Positions 19,086 through 25,401 of a DNA stretch of 25,401 nucleotides are shown here, one piece after another (the stretch's first letter is position 1; each line of letters opens with the position of its first letter). The notes under the pieces were generated by a model, which saw nothing but the letters and a program-made list of their open reading frames with translations, made no database searches and had not been told where the DNA came from. This DNA comes from a virus (lineage: Duplodnaviria; Heunggongvirae; Uroviricota; Caudoviricetes), in IMG/VR virus record IMGVR_UViG_3300033485_000006, positions 1-25,401 of that record; one strand, written 5' to 3'. Both the position numbers and the translations under genes were made by a program.

Positions 19086-20234
19086 GTGGCGCAACATGAC
19101 TATGATATAAATAGCTCGGATGCTATTAGTGGACTACAATTTAGACAAGACCTTAACGCATGTTTATCAGCTATTAAATCTGGGAATGCTGGTGCTACTG
19201 AACCAGCTACTCCTACTGCTGGTATGGTATGGTTTGATACCTCGGTATCACCTGCAGTATTTAGACAACGTAATTCTGGTAATACTGCTTGGGTATTAGT
19301 TGGTAGTGATGGTACTATGGGCGTATCTTTAGCTGCCGCGGCTACTACAACTATTGGTGGTCAAATGTATGGGGATACTATTGTTATCTCTGGAAATACT
19401 GCTATTACTAGTTTTGGTGTTTCATCTACTGGTACAAAAAGAACTTTGATTCTTAGTGGTACACCCACAATTACACATAACGGTACATCTTTAATTTGTC
19501 CTGGTGGTGCATCAATCGTTTGTATAGCTAATACAATAATTGACTTAGTATGTATAGATGGTACCCTAAGTTATTGGGAGGTTACTTCGGTACAACACCC
19601 AGATGTTTCATTTACTGAACTTGGGTATTTGGATGGTGTAACTTCTGCTATCCAGACACAGTTAAATGCGAAAGCAGCTTCCGCTACTACAGTGGCTAAA
19701 GATTCTGCTACTGGTGTAGCATACTATCCAGCAGGGACTACCGCAGAACGCCCAGTTCTTGCAGATACAGTTGTTGGTGTACGTTATAATACAACTCTAG
19801 GTGCTGAGGAAATTGGTATAGGTACAACAGGAGCTACTACATGGAAAGTGCTATCTGATACTTCTCATACGCATGCTACATACTTAGCCTTAGCTGGTGG
19901 CACAATGACTGGTGCTATCACAGCGCTGCGAGAAACAAAAGTAGCTATGGGCGCTAATGATATTAATCTAGCCGCTGGTAATCTATTCACAAAGACTATT
20001 GCTGGAATTACCACACTTACAGTATCAAACTGGTTGGCAAGTGGAAACGCAAATAGCTTTATCCTTGAATTAACTAATGGTGGTGCTTTTGCTGTAACAT
20101 GGTTTGCTGGTGTAAAGTGGGCAAGTGGGGTAGCCCCAACTCTAACAGCTGCTGGGATAGATATTTTAGGATTCTACTCACATGATGGTGGGACTACTGT
20201 GCGAGGAATACTTCTTGCGAAAGACAGTAAGTAA
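19086..20234 (+). CDS. Tail fibre/adaptor with N-terminal collar-like domain
   Basis: GTG start with SD AGGAG. N-terminal MAQHDY...FRQDLNACLSAI.S.NAG.TEP..P.AGMVWFDT attachment motif, fibre spacer YLALAGGTMTG and a C-terminal beta-sandwich (VKWASGVAPTLT..G.DILGF). Confidence 0.8.
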   Translation: MAQHDYDINSSDAISGLQFRQDLNACLSAIKSGNAGATEPATPTAGMVWFDTSVSPAVFRQRNSGNTAWVLVGSDGTMGVSLAAAATTTIGGQMYGDTIVISGNTAITSFGVSSTGTKRTLILSGTPTITHNGTSLICPGGASIVCIANTIIDLVCIDGTLSYWEVTSVQHPDVSFTELGYLDGVTSAIQTQLNAKAASATTVAKDSATGVAYYPAGTTAERPVLADTVVGVRYNTTLGAEEIGIGTTGATTWKVLSDTSHTHATYLALAGGTMTGAITALRETKVAMGANDINLAAGNLFTKTIAGITTLTVSNWLASGNANSFILELTNGGAFAVTWFAGVKWASGVAPTLTAAGIDILGFYSHDGGTTVRGILLAKDSK

Positions 20235-22117
20235 TGCTTAGGAATATGTTTGGAGGCACTAAATGCCGTACTATTGATAAGGTAGACATCTTCGGTGATT
20301 CATCAGGTGTAGTACTCTATCGTTTAGATGGTAATGCTAATGATACTGGTGGAAACTATCATGGTACTGAAACTAACATAACGTATGGTGGCGGAGTGTA
20401 TGAGAGAGGCGCTATTATTACAGCTACTAACTCAAGGGTAGCCTCAGCTGTACCAGTAAGAGCCATTAGTATGTGGATTAATAGATATACATCTAGCACA
20501 AATATTAATGCTAGACTATTCTATACTACTTCAAATCATGGGGCTTATTTAGATGCTAACACTAATAACATATTAGAACAGACTGGCGGTACAATCACCA
20601 AAATAAAAGTTAATAATGTTCTTACTAATATAATTACAAGAGATTCATTAATCCATGTGTATATCGAATTAAATCTTACTACAAGCGGAACAACATATAT
20701 TGGGAACCACTCTACAGATACTTTCCAAATAGGAGGAATAGTAGACCAAGTGAGAGTTTTCAATAGAGCATTGACTGACATAGAAGTAGCTACACTCTAT
20801 GCTGAATGTGCTCCTACATCAATAGTAGATAATGCTAATCCATTTGAAGATAATAGTCTAAAAGCTATGTATCAGTTCAATGGTAATGCTAATGACTTAA
20901 CTGGCGTATATAACGGTACAGCTACGAATGTAACATATGCAGCTGGTAAGTTTGGACAATGTGCTGTTGGTGATGGCAGTCTTTCTAAGATAAAAGCTGA
21001 TTTTCCTTATACAAATTCAATGGCTATTTCTTGTTGGGGGTATATTACTACTTTAGGACAAGCTCAATTTATATTTGGTGAAGCAGATACATTAGGTACA
21101 AATGCAAGTATAAGAATAGCTTTGGGACTAACCGCAACAAATAACTATCAGATTTACCTAGGGAATGGAACATTAGGATTAAACAGTAATACTATTGTAT
21201 CAGGGTTACTGGCTAATACTTGGTATCATTTTACATTAGTAATTAACAATCTTAATGTTATGCTATATAGAGATGGGGCATTGGTAGCAAACCTAACAAG
21301 CACCACACCTATTGGAACACATACAGCAGGAAACTTTGCATTTTTAGATTTAGGGAATTACGCTACAGCAGGGGTATTTAGCTGGAATGGCTCAATAGAC
21401 CAACTAAGAATCTTCAACAAAGCTCTAACACCAATGGAAGTAGCTTCACTCTATACAGAAACCACCCCAATGGAAGAACCTCTAGCAACGCTAGTTGACC
21501 CATTCAAAGATGGTAGCGGTAAAGCACTATACAGACTAGAAGGTAACGCACTAGATGAGAGTGGTAACTATAATGGTACTCCTACAAGTGTGACTTACGG
21601 GAATGGGATTAGTGGAAGGTCTCCTACATTTAACAATACTTCTGCATACATATCAAACACATTCACGGGAGTTGGGTTTGATGATTTTACAATATCTGTT
21701 TGGGTCAATCCAACAAGTGTTGCACTCGGTACATGGCAACAAATTATTGGTGGTGTAAATATTACTAATTATTATTCATATTTTATAGACCAAGATACAT
21801 TAGGAAGAATATCTATTAGTGATAGTCATGGGGGAACAGCCGCATCTACGGCTAATAATGCATTACCAATTGCAAATGTATGGTATCATCTATGTTTTAC
21901 CAAAGTTGGCACTGCTAGAAAATTATACATTAATGGAGTTCTATCTATAAATGATTCTCTTGGTACAGTAACTGTTGCAAAACCAACTGGGTTAATGATA
22001 GGTAAGTATTTCAATTCAACAACCCAATCTTGGAATGGCTCAATAGATCAGTTAAGAATATTCAATAGATCAGTAACCCAAGCAGAAGTGACTCAACTAT
22101 ATACAAACTTGAGCTAG
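20234..22117 (+). CDS. Receptor-binding protein with three tandem LamG/concanavalin A-like lectin domains
   Basis: Three repeats begin Y(R/Q)(L/F).GNA.D..G.Y.GT and end IDQ.R.FNRALT..EV..LY, with central SIS.W and WYH.... motifs. Coupled to the fibre gene (TAATG). Confidence 0.88.
   Translation: MLRNMFGGTKCRTIDKVDIFGDSSGVVLYRLDGNANDTGGNYHGTETNITYGGGVYERGAIITATNSRVASAVPVRAISMWINRYTSSTNINARLFYTTSNHGAYLDANTNNILEQTGGTITKIKVNNVLTNIITRDSLIHVYIELNLTTSGTTYIGNHSTDTFQIGGIVDQVRVFNRALTDIEVATLYAECAPTSIVDNANPFEDNSLKAMYQFNGNANDLTGVYNGTATNVTYAAGKFGQCAVGDGSLSKIKADFPYTNSMAISCWGYITTLGQAQFIFGEADTLGTNASIRIALGLTATNNYQIYLGNGTLGLNSNTIVSGLLANTWYHFTLVINNLNVMLYRDGALVANLTSTTPIGTHTAGNFAFLDLGNYATAGVFSWNGSIDQLRIFNKALTPMEVASLYTETTPMEEPLATLVDPFKDGSGKALYRLEGNALDESGNYNGTPTSVTYGNGISGRSPTFNNTSAYISNTFTGVGFDDFTISVWVNPTSVALGTWQQIIGGVNITNYYSYFIDQDTLGRISISDSHGGTAASTANNALPIANVWYHLCFTKVGTARKLYINGVLSINDSLGTVTVAKPTGLMIGKYFNSTTQSWNGSIDQLRIFNRSVTQAEVTQLYTNLS
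20328..22047 (+). repeat. Exact short DNA repeats at LamG domain borders
   Basis: ATGGTAATGCTAATGA at 20328-20343 and 20880-20895; TGGAATGGCTCAATAGA at 21383-21399 and 22031-22047. Confidence 0.85.
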
Positions 22118-22123
22118 GATACT

Positions 22124-22855
22124 ATGAATTACTCTAAAATATATAATCAACTTATAGCCAATCGTAAGTTAAATGTCCATAGTGACGATATATTTACTGA
22201 AAAACACCATATCATACCAAAGTCCCATGGGGGTTCAGACAGTATAGATAACATAGTTGCCCTATCCGCTAGAGAGCATTTCATAGCCCATTGGTTGCTG
22301 TGGAGGATTCATAGGGATAAAGCTATGGCATTTGCCTTTAATGTAATGTGTTGGAATACATATGGCAATAGGTATAAAAATAGTTATGCATTTGCTGAGG
22401 CTAGAAAAGCAAATAGAGATAATTTAGTAGGCAGAACTATATCAACTGAAACTAGAGATAAACTATCTAAATCAATGAAAGGAAGGCCTTCTCCTTTAAA
22501 AGGCAAAAAGGCTTCAGATGCTACTAAAGAAAAATTAAGAGTTAAAGCTAAAGTAACTGGGTTAATGCATATTGGCAACACTTATGTACTAGGTAGAAAA
22601 CATACAGAAGATGCTAAAGCAAAAATGTCTTCCAAGGCAAAAGGAAGGATTGTGTCAGAAGAGACTAAAGCAAAAATAAAAGAATCAAAAAGAGGTATAG
22701 TGCATAGTGTAGAAACTAAACTTAAAATGTCAGAGTCTGCCAAATGCACAGTTAGATTAAAAGTGGTTTGTCCACATTGCCTTAAAGAAGGCGATAATAA
22801 TCTTATGAAAAGATACCACTTTGATAACTGTAAATTAAACACACAAGGAGCATAA
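22124..22855 (+). CDS. Free-standing HNH homing endonuclease with NUMOD3 repeats
   Basis: EKHHIIPKSHGGSD...NIVALSAREHFIAHWLL (HNH), several (H/S).ET(K/R).K(M/L)S..KG repeats (NUMOD3) and a terminal CPHC...RYHFDNC. Confidence 0.92.
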   Translation: MNYSKIYNQLIANRKLNVHSDDIFTEKHHIIPKSHGGSDSIDNIVALSAREHFIAHWLLWRIHRDKAMAFAFNVMCWNTYGNRYKNSYAFAEARKANRDNLVGRTISTETRDKLSKSMKGRPSPLKGKKASDATKEKLRVKAKVTGLMHIGNTYVLGRKHTEDAKAKMSSKAKGRIVSEETKAKIKESKRGIVHSVETKLKMSESAKCTVRLKVVCPHCLKEGDNNLMKRYHFDNCKLNTQGA

Positions 22856-22856
22856 C

Positions 22857-23399
22857 ATGGAACAATGGTATAAAGATGGTGAGGTATTCAATTCACTAAT
22901 AGCAATAAGAAACAAGATGAAAGAAGTATCACTACCAATGCTATTAACTGATAGTATAGTAGCTGAACTAGGATTCGTCAAAGTAGCAGATGTAAAGCCT
23001 GCAATCGCTGCAAGTCAGTATACTGTTGAAGGTGCAATCGAATTGGTTCTAGGTGTGCCTACAAAACAATACACAGTAGTAGATAAGTCAGTTGAACAGA
23101 TAGCATCTGAGACAGCAGAGTATATGAAGGGTATTGTGGATAACTTCACCAATATAACCACAGAATATATTGAAGCTAAAGTACAAGCATATAATGCTGC
23201 AAATGGTCTAGCGTTTAAAGATATTGATGCGTTTACTAAGTACGCTATTAATGCTGGATCGCAGCATCATGCTATTGCTAATCAGTTCATAACCTATGCT
23301 GATAATGTGTGGGCTGCTATAAGAGCATACCAAGCAACTGCAACAGTGATACCTACTGAGGTCGAGTTCAAAGCAGTCCTAGACACTGTGGTATTCTGA
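22857..23399 (+). CDS. Tail fibre assembly chaperone-like protein
   Basis: KPAI...Q...EG.IELV.G...KQY.V.D motif and helical C-terminus (F..I....YA...S.....A..F....D.VW......PT..EF...L), typical of fibre-associated chaperones. Located after the receptor-binding gene. Confidence 0.6.
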   Translation: MEQWYKDGEVFNSLIAIRNKMKEVSLPMLLTDSIVAELGFVKVADVKPAIAASQYTVEGAIELVLGVPTKQYTVVDKSVEQIASETAEYMKGIVDNFTNITTEYIEAKVQAYNAANGLAFKDIDAFTKYAINAGSQHHAIANQFITYADNVWAAIRAYQATATVIPTEVEFKAVLDTVVF

Positions 23400-23662
23400 T
23401 GGCTTGCTGTACATTATTCCCAGAGCGTTGGCGTGGAGATGAAATAAGTGCAGCATGTTGTAATCATGATTACGATGTAACCCATAACTATAATTTGGTT
23501 ACACCAGCTAAAAATTTCTGGTATAACTTAAAAAATTGTGGTGTCCACTGGCAATGGAGATTAATGATTGTTTTTGGTGGCACCATTGGTCATATTATAA
23601 AATACCCTTGGTTGGCTATACAGACCTATAAAAATAGGAGAAAATTATGTTCGGGTACTTAA
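23399..23662 (+). CDS. Small PLA2-like (CxxHD) protein with hydrophobic C-terminal segment
   Basis: CT.FP...CCNHD resembles the phospholipase A2 His-Asp motif, followed by WQWRLMIVFGGTIGHII. Coupled by TGATG. Confidence 0.45.
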   Translation: MACCTLFPERWRGDEISAACCNHDYDVTHNYNLVTPAKNFWYNLKNCGVHWQWRLMIVFGGTIGHIIKYPWLAIQTYKNRRKLCSGT

Positions 23663-24324
23663 AATATTTATGGCAAATATATAGTCCATTTGACATAAAT
23701 AGAATTATTCGTGAAATGGCCGAACCTCTTAAAGAGGTTAGAGTTACATTAGATGAAATACGCCATAGTAATAATGTGACTATCGCATTACTCGAAAATG
23801 AACTAGCAGAGAAAGAATTTATACTACAGCAATTCGCTAATGCTATACCAGATATGGTGTGGTTCAAACAATATGATATTGATGGTAATGGGGGGCAGTA
23901 TATCTATGCTAATCAGGCAATACGTGATCAACTTCTATTATGCCCTAATCCAATTGGGTATACAGATATAGAATTAGCAATTAGGGCTAAAGAGATATAC
24001 GGGATAGAAAATCATACGTTTGGTGAAAAGTGTGCCAATAGTGACCCTATTACTATAGAGAATTGGAAAAATGGTATTACTTCTAGTAGATTTTTAGAGA
24101 GTGGTAAAGTTAAGGGTAAGATGGTGTATCTTGAGGTACATAAATCTGTTGTAGTCACAGAGCATGGGAAAGTTCTAGGGGTATGTGGTTCTGGTCGCGA
24201 TATTACAGAATATATTGAAGCTGTTAAAGAATTATCTTTAATAGATAATAACGATATTGAGTGTTGTCTATCAATACGAAAATTAGTTAGTGTGTTTAAA
24301 AAATATGAATTTGGGGAGGAGTAA
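23647..24324 (+). CDS. Stand-alone PAS (PAS_4-like) domain protein with N-terminal amphipathic helix and coiled coil
   Basis: LQQFANAIPDMVWFK...YIYANQA...IGYTDIEL...D......F.E...G..VYLEVHKSVV....GKVLGVCGSGRDITE is a complete PAS/PAC pattern. SD AGGAG. No kinase, GGDEF or HTH output domain. Confidence 0.88.
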   Translation: MFGYLKYLWQIYSPFDINRIIREMAEPLKEVRVTLDEIRHSNNVTIALLENELAEKEFILQQFANAIPDMVWFKQYDIDGNGGQYIYANQAIRDQLLLCPNPIGYTDIELAIRAKEIYGIENHTFGEKCANSDPITIENWKNGITSSRFLESGKVKGKMVYLEVHKSVVVTEHGKVLGVCGSGRDITEYIEAVKELSLIDNNDIECCLSIRKLVSVFKKYEFGEE

Positions 24325-24326
24325 GT

Positions 24327-24551
24327 ATGGCAGCCGAAACGTGGGAGGAAGTAAGGTATCATGTTCTCGGGCAACTACCACTATTGAACCAAAAGATAGA
24401 TAATGTCGCTACTCAGTTAACATCAGTGGATAAGAAATTTGAAACTAGTATGTCAGTTCTAACAACTAAAATGATGATGATTATGGCTATTGGTTCTGGA
24501 GTTATTGGGTTAACCATCCAGTTAATTACCCATGCTTTTGGTATAAAATAA
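24327..24551 (+). CDS. XhlA-like/holin-like single-pass membrane protein
   Basis: 74 aa: coiled coil (LNQKIDNVATQLTSVDKKF) plus C-terminal hydrophobic helix (MMMIMAIGSGVIGLTIQLI). Strong SD GGAGG. Confidence 0.65.
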   Translation: MAAETWEEVRYHVLGQLPLLNQKIDNVATQLTSVDKKFETSMSVLTTKMMMIMAIGSGVIGLTIQLITHAFGIK

Positions 24552-24727
24552 TGAAAACAATAGAGCATGATTCCACATGTGAAATATTATACAAGTTGAG
24601 AGATGCGGTAGCTGCTGATGAATTAATTTTTGCTATGTATTTAGTTGGTCAACTACAAGAAAAATTAACTAGGTTAATTAATAGTCAGGAACACAAGGGT
24701 TGTATCCTTAATTGTGGTAGTAAATAA
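24551..24727 (+). CDS. 58-aa helical microprotein
   Basis: MKTIEHDSTCEILYKLRDAVAADELIFAMYLVGQLQEKLTRLINSQEHKGCILNCGSK*. TAATG overlaps at both ends. Not in the ORF track. Confidence 0.7.
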   Translation: MKTIEHDSTCEILYKLRDAVAADELIFAMYLVGQLQEKLTRLINSQEHKGCILNCGSK

Positions 24728-24852
24728 TGTATAAAATACAAGTATTATCAAAACTATTGGCTAAATTAATAGCTAACTCTGAGTTCACCGAAGCATTTAA
24801 AGTATATGAAGAACTAGGTAAGGTTCTTGATACATATAAAATATCATGTTAA
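24727..24852 (+). CDS. 41-aa helical microprotein
   Basis: MYKIQVLSKLLAKLIANSEFTEAFKVYEELGKVLDTYKISC*. TAATG-coupled; its stop abuts the endolysin SD. Not in the ORF track. Confidence 0.65.
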   Translation: MYKIQVLSKLLAKLIANSEFTEAFKVYEELGKVLDTYKISC

Positions 24853-24861
24853 AGGGATTAC

Positions 24862-25314
24862 ATGCAATTAACAACACATTTTAGTATAAGTGAATTTGTG
24901 AACTCCACTAATTTTCCAAGTTTAGTTCCTCGGAATACACTAGAAGCACAACCCTATATTAATTATATGACTAGAGTAGCAGAACAATTAGAGATTATTA
25001 GAGCGTACTATAAGATGTCTATAATTGTTACTAGTGGGTTTAGAGGCCCTTCATTAAATTTAGCTGTAGGTTCTAGAGCTAAAAGTAGCCAGCATCTAAC
25101 TGGGCAAGCAGCTGATTTTATCATTCCTGGTGTAACTGTGGATAGAATTTTTAGTGATATTAAATCTGGTAAAATTAAACTTACAGATTGTAATAAATTA
25201 ATTCTTGAGAATGTTAGGGGTAAATCTTGGATTCACCTAGGTATCGCTAATAAAAAGACTACAAAGATAACATACCTTAAAACTATTGATGGGGCAAACT
25301 ATGAATTGGTTTAA
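24862..25314 (+). CDS. Endolysin, Zn-peptidase M15 family (Peptidase_M15_3-like)
   Basis: HFSISEF, TSGFR...N.AVG....SQH..GQAADF and WIHLG supply the His-x6-Asp...His zinc ligands. No signal anchor. Confidence 0.9.
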   Translation: MQLTTHFSISEFVNSTNFPSLVPRNTLEAQPYINYMTRVAEQLEIIRAYYKMSIIVTSGFRGPSLNLAVGSRAKSSQHLTGQAADFIIPGVTVDRIFSDIKSGKIKLTDCNKLILENVRGKSWIHLGIANKKTTKITYLKTIDGANYELV

Positions 25315-25401
25315 TAGCCTAATCTCTGATGGTTCTGCTATAAGTTCTGCAAGGTTCCTAAATATCTTTGGCGCTATTGTATTATCTGGTGTGTATATTG
25401 C
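25301..25401 (+). CDS. Probable holin, N-terminal part (runs off the right edge)
   Basis: MNWFNSLISDGSAISSARFLNIFGAIVLSGVYI.. : SS.R motif then the start of a transmembrane helix. Overlaps the endolysin stop by 14 nt. Confidence 0.6.
   Translation, partial: MNWFNSLISDGSAISSARFLNIFGAIVLSGVYI

Follow-up and report, generated by a model that had tools for sequence, protein, structure and literature searches.

The timing of lysis sets the fitness of a phage, and the known timers, such as lambda S105/S107 and T4 RI/RIII, answer to holin concentration, membrane potential or superinfection. We know of no lysis timer with a classical small-molecule or redox sensor domain. T4-type antiholins are small accessory proteins, one of them cytoplasmic, which are encoded beside or close to the lysis genes and set the moment of holin firing (PMC8385771, PMC11413866). 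The T4 holin T with its antiholins RI (periplasmic) and RIII (cytoplasmic), lambda S107 and P1 LydB share their concept with the locus described here, and are related to it neither in sequence nor in fold. The antiholins known so far each bind a single cognate holin and respond to superinfection or to the membrane potential, whereas our locus presents a ligand-type sensor domain in a module that appears indifferent to holin type.

XhlA of Bacillus subtilis PBSX (lysis genes xhlA-xhlB-xlyA) is needed together with the holin XhlB and the endolysin XlyA for PBSX lysis (PMC5589764). The tail-anchored protein of our locus, hereafter TA, has the same size and architecture, with a cytoplasmic coiled coil and one C-terminal transmembrane (TM) helix, and the genes of both proteins stand at the front of the lysis genes, ahead of endolysin and holin, although the order differs. 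XhlA, however, has no known PAS partner, and the phages described here have Gram-negative hosts.

Among PAS sensors, the VqmA proteins of vibriophage VP882 (VqmA_Phage, phage-encoded) and of Vibrio cholerae (PDB 7dwm, 6ugl, 6ide) link a small-molecule signal to host killing, and on that plan our PAS protein may be likened to them. VqmA carries a LuxR-type HTH DNA-binding domain and acts on antirepressor transcription, whereas our PAS protein has no DNA-binding domain and is encoded in a late lysis operon beside a membrane protein. The short LOV proteins (PpSB1-LOV, SBW25-LOV, W619_1; PDB 7yx0, 7a6p, 5j3w, 5luv) have the same plan of a PAS core with an N-cap helix, a C-terminal helix and no effector, and presumably signal through protein-protein contacts; unlike our protein, whose N-terminal helix spans about 50 residues, they are bacterial and not known to be linked to lysis.

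Here we analyze a lysis locus in the first 25,401 nucleotides (the window) of the Caudoviricetes record IMGVR_UViG_3300033485_000006. A preliminary description of this DNA had proposed that a PAS sensor gates lysis and knew of no characterized PAS-controlled lysis system; our literature searches on PAS proteins with a holin, an endolysin or a lysis cassette, and on cytoplasmic sensor antiholins, likewise found nothing relevant. We interpret PAS, TA and a 41-aa microprotein (micro41), which lie at the front of the lysis cassette, as a module that couples a sensor to the timing of lysis, a reading that we regard as an even call.

Organization of the lysis cassette

Positions 23399-25401 hold seven tightly coupled genes, all on the + strand (Table 1), in the abutting and overlapping arrangement first described. 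The 87-aa gene begins in a TGATG overlap at 23399 and overlaps the PAS start by 16 nt, and a gap of 2 nt separates PAS from TA, with a Shine-Dalgarno sequence (GGAGGAG) within the final PAS codons. The conserved acidic C-terminus of the PAS protein may partly reflect the ribosome-binding site of TA and not protein function. TAATG overlaps at 24551 and 24727 stand on both sides of the 58-aa ORF, and the endolysin overlaps the holin ATG at 25301 by 14 nt. No terminator-like sites were found on the + strand inside the block, and its count of promoter-like sites did not rise above the shuffle expectation. A megablast search of the block against 50,697 phage records gave no match.

Table 1 Features of the lysis locus; positions are those of the window unless given as G000 positions.
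Feature	Position	Strand	Basis or remark
87-aa Cys/Trp-rich protein	23399-23662	+	ORF
PAS protein, 225 aa	23647-24324	+	ORF, Pfam, AF2, Foldseek
TA, 74-aa tail-anchored helix	24327-24551	+	ORF, TM call, AF2, family HMM
58-aa ORF	24551-24727	+	ORF
micro41, 41-aa microprotein	24727-24852	+	ORF, family HMM
M15 endolysin, 150 aa	24862-25314	+	Pfam PF08291, phrog_894
Holin-like gene, 5' part, 3'-open	25286/25301-25401 (window end)	+	ORF, TM call, phrog_1322
i-spanin	G000 25533-25916		just beyond window
o-spanin lipoprotein	G000 25894-26118		lipobox FSGC; phrog_2291

The assignment of an M15 endolysin is confirmed by matches to Peptidase_M15_3 (1.4e-11) and to the phrog_894 endolysin family (2.7e-26). 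The holin-like gene, which runs past the window edge to G000 position 25552, is of class II type, with 83-88 aa, two TM helices and a highly charged C-terminus, and belongs with the membrane proteins of phrog_1322. The block is thus a lysis cassette of the Gram-negative type, comprising M15 endolysin, two-TM holin, i-spanin and o-spanin, and the presence of spanins indicates Gram-negative hosts for these phages. The spanins, located just past the window edge, had been overlooked in the preliminary description. Homologous sets of holin and spanins are found in two other loci, L003 and L007. The cluster-2 membrane protein, a holin candidate, matches phrog_1544, a family of no annotated function, and has no Pfam family.

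The PAS protein and its invariant loop

The Pfam match of the PAS protein to PF08448 (PAS_4) is marginal, at 23.6 bits against a cutoff of 23.1, and covers the C-terminal half only. The AF2 model (pLDDT 85.9) shows a short N-terminal helix (residues 2-11), a long helix (14-66), a five-stranded core (70-185) and, in the about 38 residues after the core, two short helices (187-199 and 207-219). The core strands (70-76, 82-88, 146-155, 158-170 and 176-185), with helices between them, form a PAS/PAC fold; Foldseek assigns a probability of 1.0 to many PAS structures, including short-LOV, VqmA and NifL, and VIA-align against PAS structures gives Z values of 10-12. The intact PAS/PAC fold claimed for this protein is therefore upheld, as is the claim that it carries no output domain: neither an output domain nor a TM segment was detected by Pfam and TM calling, and no HTH family by Pfam or NCBIfam. 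The N-terminal helix of this cytoplasmic protein is aromatic and amphipathic, and the C-terminal tail, which contains Cys, ends in FKKYEFGEE.

An alignment of 28 family members reveals an invariant loop, N122-H123-x-F125-G126-xx-C129-xxx-D133 (NHTFGxxCxxSD), which holds the sole invariant Cys of the family and lies ahead of the Fα helix. The surrounding segment, residues 119-133, is the part of the core modeled with lowest confidence (block pLDDT 65), which would fit a site organized by a ligand absent from the model.

Stand-alone PAS proteins of this family form at least 186 clusters at 90% identity. Their size of about 200-250 aa and their family-specific N- and C-terminal extensions indicate that they are not fragments of host kinases; had they been such fragments, the original proposal would have been undermined. 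Many homologues carry precomputed matches to PF08448 or PF00989, and the core aligns with bacterial PAS_4 domains at E values of 1e-18 to 1e-25, being 35-50% identical to those of histidine kinases, GGDEF/EAL and LuxR-type proteins. Phage and bacterial proteins have the motif PDMxWxKD...HTFGExCxxSD in common, and the same residues are invariant in the phage family and in the host sensor subfamily (the W72/K74 strand, Y85, N89, N122-H123, C129, D133 and R184). Judged by sequence, the core belongs to a PAS_4 subfamily found in the histidine kinases and c-di-GMP enzymes of bacteria. A scan of bacterial genomes returned host multi-domain PAS proteins in Desulfopila, Aliarcobacter and Desulfobacteraceae, as well as three MAG contigs resembling phage DNA. 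No cultured phage was found to carry the gene, as tblastn of the PAS protein against the 50,697 phage records gave no match, and PHROGs contains no family for PAS, micro41, the 58-aa ORF or the 87-aa ORF. When all PDB sequences were searched with a profile of the family alignment, the search gave only a spurious latrotoxin match and no relative at E <=0.01.

Comparison with characterized PAS sensors

VqmA is the best structural neighbor of the PAS model in VIA-align (Z 12.2, rmsd 2.9 over 118 residues, 25% identity; phage VqmA, Z 10.8), with Z values within about 2 units of those of many unrelated PAS domains, so that no specific kinship emerges. Since the protein has no HTH domain, a role as a DNA-binding one-component regulator like VqmA was rejected. 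The top Foldseek matches are the short LOV proteins (E 6e-7), at a sequence identity of 13-16%. The flavin-adduct motif of LOV domains is GXNCRFLQ, with its photoactive Cys; inspection of the 28-sequence alignment by eye did not show it, the conserved loop there being NHTFGxxCxxSD, and LOV photochemistry was set aside on this ground.

The best-named similarity in NCBIfam is to ArcB, the quinone/redox-sensing kinase of E. coli (NF008302, E 3.7e-5, residues 48-192), with 22 bits against a cutoff of 838. The local plan, from membrane anchor through leucine zipper to PAS, is alike, but ArcB has no HTFGxxC loop, and a disulfide mechanism of the ArcB type was rejected because ArcB Cys180 and Cys241 fall opposite Ala and Tyr positions in a mapping made from the profile consensus line. 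As to heme-PAS sensors (FixL, DosP and FG214 type), in which a proximal His on or beside Fα ligates the heme, the family has an invariant His123 with Cys129 six residues on, just before Fα, and DosP appears only at Foldseek rank 49. The heme-PAS protein FG214 uses His156/His175/Met172 (bioRxiv 10.64898/2026.03.15.711900), a spacing not seen in our PAS protein.

TA, micro41 and the neighboring small proteins

TA consists of an N-terminal cytoplasmic coiled-coil helix and a single C-terminal TM segment at about residues 44-66, modeled by AF2 as one continuous helix (3-70). The early label 'XhlA-like' fits this architecture and the placement of so small a protein beside holin and endolysin genes; it finds little echo in family searches, where none of the 15 TA members matches Pfam XhlA (PF10779) at E up to 1 and the PHROG 'hemolysin' matches are weak (phrog_1193 in 4/15, best E 0.0033; phrog_937 in 1/15). 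The TA-family alignment is poorly conserved. A complex prediction for PAS and TA from family alignments (score 0.02, mark 0.32) counts neither for nor against binding.

Many PAS domains serve only for dimerization, and it is conceivable that TA is an XhlA-type holin accessory or a second holin while PAS acts as a constitutive scaffold or chaperone that senses nothing, so that lysis is not signal-gated. The XhlA-like architecture of TA with its weak 'hemolysin' matches, the requirement for XhlA alongside XhlB and XlyA (PMC5589764) and a PAS match barely above the Pfam threshold all lend this some weight. We nevertheless consider it distinctly unlikely, as the residues kept invariant in the phage family are those invariant in the host sensor subfamily, and they sit in the E-F loop and the Fα region, the usual cofactor site of PAS domains, which a pure scaffold is not expected to keep.

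The microprotein micro41 is helical, and its sequence always ends in T-Y/F-x-x-S/A/C-Cys-COOH. It occurs directly after TA in at least 13 loci, with HMM matches in L002, L003, L005, L006, L007, L009, L012/13, L017, L028/29 and L043 and a weak one in L042 (E 2.9e-4); a look-alike recognized by alignment only directly follows PAS in L038. By homology and position, micro41 is the third member of the conserved module with PAS and TA. The 58-aa and 87-aa genes were rejected as conserved parts of this module, as neither has a homologue in any other locus. The 58-aa ORF, unique to the window phage, may be a diverged paralogue of micro41, to whose family it aligns loosely.

The 87-aa protein contains a CCNHD motif and one hydrophobic helix. 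It had been called PLA2-like, and that label survives as a lead only: the motif, to be compared with the CCxxHDxC catalytic motif and conserved disulfide pattern of PLA2, is present, and the language-model (Atlas feature) similarity to clusters partly annotated as PLA2 is 0.86-0.89, under the 0.9 level that marks more than a lead, but the protein matches nothing in Pfam, PHROG or NCBIfam, with no PLA2 family at E up to 1 in Pfam. The same measure gives 0.93 to viral hypothetical clusters and 0.81 to a DUF1353 cluster. DUF1353 proteins are encoded at -1/-2 in L004 and L008.

Conservation of the module across loci

The synteny sample comprises 36 loci with a stand-alone PAS homologue, 28 of them annotated gene by gene and 24 remaining after dereplication, all found through one protein family and hence not independent samples. 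A TA-family gene lies immediately downstream of PAS in 34 of the 36, and a gene with that architecture in one more. The TA-family HMM matches only at +1 after PAS and in none of the five loci whose PAS proteins are host multi-domain ones; the searched loci, about 380 kb in all, contain no TA apart from PAS. Of the 28 annotated loci, 25 encode a cell-wall hydrolase no more than six genes downstream, and together these counts bear out the expected synteny of PAS homologues with lysis genes. The hydrolases belong to six families (M15_3, M15_4, GH108, GH24, SLT and DUF5675), of which DUF5675 has been classed as a C82-like lysin domain (bioRxiv 10.64898/2026.04.11.717860). In L021-L024 and L026 the PAS-TA pair lies between a holin-like two-TM protein and the endolysin. 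PAS, TA and micro41 are co-oriented, translationally coupled and co-inherited across phages whose PAS proteins are 30-40% identical, and the module accompanies the lysis genes even as endolysins and holin-like proteins give way to those of other families and the structural genes nearby change.

At least four unrelated holin-like families accompany the module, and the holin-like gene switches side relative to PAS. The variety of families argues against specific holin binding and sits poorly with a classical antiholin dedicated to one holin. Of the signal-gated lysis first proposed, the linkage to lysis genes survives, whereas the proposed contact between the PAS coiled coil and TA or the holin is left unsupported.

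The gene order could simply have been inherited within one phage lineage, with no functional meaning. The way the loci were sampled is compatible with such inertia, and an SU10-type portal lies close by in 11 of the 24 dereplicated loci, next to the cassette in most relatives. The window phage, by contrast, has a tape measure and a J-type tail, a siphovirus-type structural module, and the genes at positions -4 to -2 fall into 20-21 clusters among 21-23 loci, nearly all unrelated between loci. Given, in addition, six changes of endolysin family, at least four of holin-like family, a holin-like gene that changes side and a TA that keeps to PAS throughout the searched loci, we find it very improbable that inertia alone accounts for the association.

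A further explanation, which we think rather unlikely but of more weight, is that PAS, TA and micro41 form a membrane-associated accessory module that serves a late function other than lysis timing and occupies a permissive slot between tail-fiber and lysis genes. This junction is a classic accessory-gene ('moron') site and hotspot, exemplified by lambda lom and bor, so that position alone does not reveal function. Superinfection exclusion, keeping the membrane energized and interference with host kinase or c-di-GMP signaling are candidate functions; for interference, PAS would heterodimerize with host PAS_4 domains, which is conceivable at the 35-50% identity of the cores. Some loci point the same way: no hydrolase was recognized near PAS in L011, L018 and L019 (3 of the 28), nor in L042 by the weaker screen of precomputed Pfam annotation and BLAST against the hydrolases of other loci, and P0122, a PAS homologue fused to a histidine-kinase ATPase on a myovirus contig, lies away from recognizable lysis genes. 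Accessory genes of this kind are sporadic, however, while the PAS-TA pair persists at 30% identity across differing structural modules, always accompanies the lysis genes, lies in several loci flanked by the holin-like gene on one side and the endolysin gene on the other, and is translationally coupled into the cassette.

Proposed mechanism

Under the reading of a lysis-timing module, PAS would dimerize through its long N-terminal helix and be brought to the inner face of the membrane by its aromatic amphipathic N-terminus together with TA. The homologue P0132 favors this reading, as PAS itself has N-terminal TM segments there and is directly followed by a micro41-like gene, with no TA between. 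A cytoplasmic ligand, cofactor or redox state acting at the His123/Cys129 loop would change the PAS-TA assembly, and TA, as an XhlA-like single-pass helix, would then promote or delay the firing of the holin; the simplest route would be an effect on the membrane or its potential and not on one particular holin. Micro41 could be a small cofactor or inhibitor of this switch. The time of lysis would thereby track the physiological state of the infected cell.

More tentatively, we put forward as a possibility that the three proteins represent the first ligand- or redox-gated lysis clock, in which a PAS domain of host derivation reads a metabolite, cofactor or redox state via His123/Cys129 and TA sets off or holds back whichever holin is present, for instance by way of the membrane potential. 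With such a clock, uncultured aquatic phages of a large group would tune their latent period and burst to the energy state of the host.

Significance

The PAS_4 subfamily with the invariant HTFGExCxxSD loop occurs widely among kinases and c-di-GMP enzymes of bacteria and has no solved structure, and the identity of its ligand would inform host signaling as well. The module would be compact and portable and seems not to depend on the type of holin, and it is on these grounds a candidate for ligand-controlled lysis in synthetic biology. If our reading is true, TA and micro41 would be two new small-protein families, and a conserved PAS sensor in the lysis cassette would provide a direct read-out of host physiology at the lysis decision.

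Conservation of a three-gene module around PAS

Thirty-six loci with a stand-alone homologue of the 225-residue PAS protein, which has no output domain, were collected and genes were called in them. Directly 3' of PAS there is almost always a gene for a small protein, here called TA for its tail anchor, which has a coiled-coil helix at its N-terminus and a single transmembrane segment (TM). The spacing of the two genes usually falls between -4 and +2 nt, with extremes of -32 and +11. Two TA HMMs, built separately for the short form and for the long one, which has an extra periplasmic helix, recognise overlapping sets of genes; in six-frame ORFs covering about 380 kb, their matches are confined to the position right after PAS and occur in 34 of the 36 loci. 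In the locus L025 the gene after PAS resembles TA in architecture only, and none of five host multi-domain PAS genes has a TA HMM match beside it. AF2 models the TA of the window as a single continuous helix spanning residues 3-70. In at least 13 loci TA is followed by a further microprotein, micro41 (41 aa), whose sequence invariably ends in TY-x-x-(S/A/C)-Cys.

Neither the 87-aa gene nor the 58-aa ORF of the window has a counterpart in the other loci. The 58-aa ORF, found in this phage alone among the 36 loci, aligns loosely with the micro41 family, with a helix-turn-helix-like pattern and a Cys near its end; this alignment suggests a local duplication.

Exchange of lysis genes around PAS and TA

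The preliminary description had proposed that PAS gates lysis timing, and the synteny with lysis genes expected for its homologues is borne out: of the 28 loci with gene-by-gene annotation, 25 have a peptidoglycan hydrolase at most six genes downstream, its type differing between loci (see table), while no recognisable hydrolase is found nearby in L011, L018 and L019. Among these hydrolases, DUF5675 has been classed as a C82-like lysin domain in a recent preprint (bioRxiv 10.64898/2026.04.11.717860). The later locus L043 carries a GH108-like gene by BLAST, and a weaker screen of L042 detected no hydrolase of any kind.

The holin-like genes vary as well. A membrane protein of 164-187 aa with two C-terminal TMs (cluster 2, phrog_1544) occupies position -1 or +2 of PAS in 10 of 24 dereplicated loci, and the order in L021-L024 is holin-like gene, PAS, TA, endolysin. 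Different small two-TM proteins are present in other loci, of the phrog_1322 type in the window, L003 and L007, and phrog_9646 in L017. Genes at positions -4 to -2 of PAS are almost all unrelated from locus to locus, and the structural module also varies, being siphovirus-type in the window phage and having an SU10-type portal or adaptor in many other loci.

That the PAS-TA pair stays constant while the endolysins and holins around it are exchanged is the chief argument against two alternative readings. That the linkage to lysis is plain inherited gene order is very improbable; that the module serves a late membrane-associated accessory function unrelated to lysis is unlikely. The observations show that PAS, TA and micro41 form a three-gene module, passed on together and set within lysis cassettes whatever the type of endolysin and holin.

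Proteins of the phrog_1544 family, whose function is not annotated, begin with a hydrophobic stretch, continue with a long helical region that contains an EDNRH motif, and close with two TMs ending in FFGSS. Their genes occur on either side of the PAS-TA pair, adjoining endolysins, and they may constitute a holin family not yet described.

Features of the window and of related loci. G000 is the longer record containing the window, and L002 is the locus of the window phage.
Feature	Location	Remarks
LamG-type fibre protein	window 20234-22117	
HNH-NUMOD3 homing endonuclease	window 22124-22855	phrog_655, 3e-51
87-aa CCNHD protein	window 23399-23662	
PAS	window 23647-24324	225 aa
TA	window 24327-24551	74 aa
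58-aa ORF	window 24551-24727	
micro41	window 24727-24852	41 aa
i-spanin-like protein	G000 25533-26118 with o-spanin (L002 3534-4119)	127 aa, N-terminal TM; after holin
o-spanin lipoprotein	within G000 25533-26118	74 aa, lipobox FSGC, phrog_2291; overlaps i-spanin gene
DUF1353 proteins	L004 5488-5904; L008 1941-2348	
phrog_1544 family members	L010 6768-7286; L016 6860-7381; L020 2422-2985; L021 5389-5889; L041 6176-6721; others	
M15_3	window, L003, L007, L009, L022/23	
DUF5675	L004, L006, L008	
SLT	L005	
GH108 with PG_binding_3	L010, L016, L017, L028/29, probably L025	
M15_4	L012/13, L014, L015, L020, L021/26, L027	L015 by homology to L014
GH24	L024	

The lysis block of the window phage

The window covers the first 25.4 kb of an uncultured-virus record of 89.4 kb, with a completeness estimate of 69%. 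Its genes for a portal, protease, major head protein, tape measure, J-type central fibre and LamG-type fibre proteins mark it as the late operon of a siphovirus-like phage, whose nearest cultured relatives, Vibrio phages, are very distant (24% identity in the head protein). A homing endonuclease is interposed between a LamG-type fibre protein and the 180-aa gene preceding the lysis block.

All seven ORFs of the block described previously were found again on the + strand, and no terminator-like site is present on that strand within it. As read from the sequence, there is a TGATG overlap at 23399, the 87-aa gene overlaps the PAS start by 16 nt, TAATG overlaps lie at 24551 and 24727, and the endolysin overlaps the holin ATG at 25301 by 14 nt. 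PAS and TA are separated by 2 nt, with a Shine-Dalgarno sequence, GGAGGAG, within the last PAS codons. The acidic conserved C-terminus of PAS (ending FGEE) is encoded by GGGGAGGAG (window 24310-24329), and the same bases form the ribosome-binding site of TA, so part of this apparent protein conservation may reflect a constraint at the RNA level.

Read past the window edge, the holin-like gene encodes a protein of two TM helices with a charged tail, and the spanin genes lie just outside the window end. Endolysin, two-TM holin, i-spanin and o-spanin thus make up a complete Gram-negative lysis set.

The 87-aa protein at the head of the block matches no profile; its feature similarity is 0.86-0.89 to prokaryotic PLA2 clusters and 0.81 to a DUF1353 cluster. 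In two other loci the corresponding position shortly upstream of PAS is taken by DUF1353 proteins, and a lipid-acting or membrane protein may recur in this position at the start of the cassettes.

Fold and origin of the PAS protein

The Pfam match of PAS is marginal (PAS_4, 23.6 bits against a cutoff of 23.1). The stand-alone family comprises at least 186 clusters, mostly of 200-250 aa, and none bears a functional name. An alignment of 28 members (A1) contains 22 invariant positions, among them M70, W72, K74, Y85, N89 and those of the block N122-H123-x-F125-G126-xx-C129-xxx-D133. In the AF2 model (pLDDT 85.9), residues 2-11 form a short N-terminal helix, 14-66 a long one and 70-185 a canonical PAS core, followed by two short helices at the C-terminus; the lowest-confidence stretch of the core is the invariant loop 119-133. 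Structural neighbours found with Foldseek are short LOV proteins, Rv1364c, NifL and VqmA. VIA-align places VqmA at the top with a Z of 12.2 and the VP882 phage VqmA at 10.8, with many PAS domains within about two Z units, and none of the solved structures is a sequence relative.

By exhaustive profile-free search, the core is 35-50% identical to PAS_4 domains of bacterial histidine kinases, GGDEF/EAL proteins and LuxR-type regulators, with which it shares motifs including HTFGExCxxSD. Hence the phage protein has been captured from an uncharacterised bacterial sensor subfamily, whose conserved pocket-region residues it retains. Parts peculiar to the phage family are its aromatic N-terminus, its long helix and a tail that contains Cys (CC, CxxC or similar) and closes with a conserved YEF/YKF. 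PAS could alternatively be a non-sensing scaffold for an XhlA-type lysis protein, a reading made distinctly unlikely mainly by its retention of the invariant residues of the host subfamily.

Natural variants

In two family members, N-terminal TM segments replace the amphipathic helix. The protein P0132 has about three TMs and is followed by a micro41-like 44-aa ORF, with no TA between (978-nt contig), while in P0153, with one TM, TA is still present. The single case of P0132 suggests that the role of TA includes holding PAS at the membrane.

A further homologue, P0122, joins a kinase ATPase to PAS; it is encoded on a myovirus contig (Logan SRR31980948, 32 kb) which carries a tail sheath and ribonucleotide reductase, with no recognisable lysis genes adjacent. 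Its 552 residues begin with TMs, continue with a histidine-kinase ATPase domain and end in a complete phage-type PAS that has the family C-terminal tail (51% identity), coupling the same sensor to a kinase instead of TA. In P0210 (294 aa) the family sequence extends over its N-terminal half, as far as the second β-strand region, and then gives way to a Thr/Ser-rich C-terminus resembling a tail fibre; the protein is either a recombination product at a tail-fibre/PAS junction or an assembly chimera. Three MAG contigs labelled Shapirobacteria, Falkowbacteria and Caldisericales (L030-L032) carry stand-alone PAS followed by TA, as in the phage loci. These contigs probably represent DNA of phages or prophages that was binned into MAGs, and their labels are unsafe for host assignment unless checked.

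Discussion

The PAS module is linked to lysis genes, and from this arrangement we infer a mechanism of binding and gating. A PAS dimer would sit at the cytoplasmic face of the membrane, where a ligand or redox state read at its conserved His/Cys loop would alter TA; TA, an XhlA-like helix, could then shift the moment of holin firing. In PBSX, XhlA is required together with the holin XhlB and the endolysin XlyA (PMC5589764). Because the module accompanies several unrelated holin-like families, an effect on the membrane or its potential seems to us more likely than binding to a specific holin. The lambda and T4 holins are triggered by depolarisation.

To our knowledge, the only characterised phage PAS sensor tied to host killing is VqmA_Phage of VP882, which acts as a transcription factor and has the HTH domain that the protein described here lacks. 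Short LOV proteins have the same output-less plan, but the LOV cofactor motif is not seen in the PAS alignment. ArcB is the closest named profile, although its redox cysteines do not align with the phage protein. There is no basis for claiming a heme-PAS of the FG214 type, which has no sequence relation to the phage protein and a different ligand spacing. In the paper library searched, nothing on PAS domains in lysis cassettes was found. What is described here is a lysis cassette with a sensor-domain accessory module.
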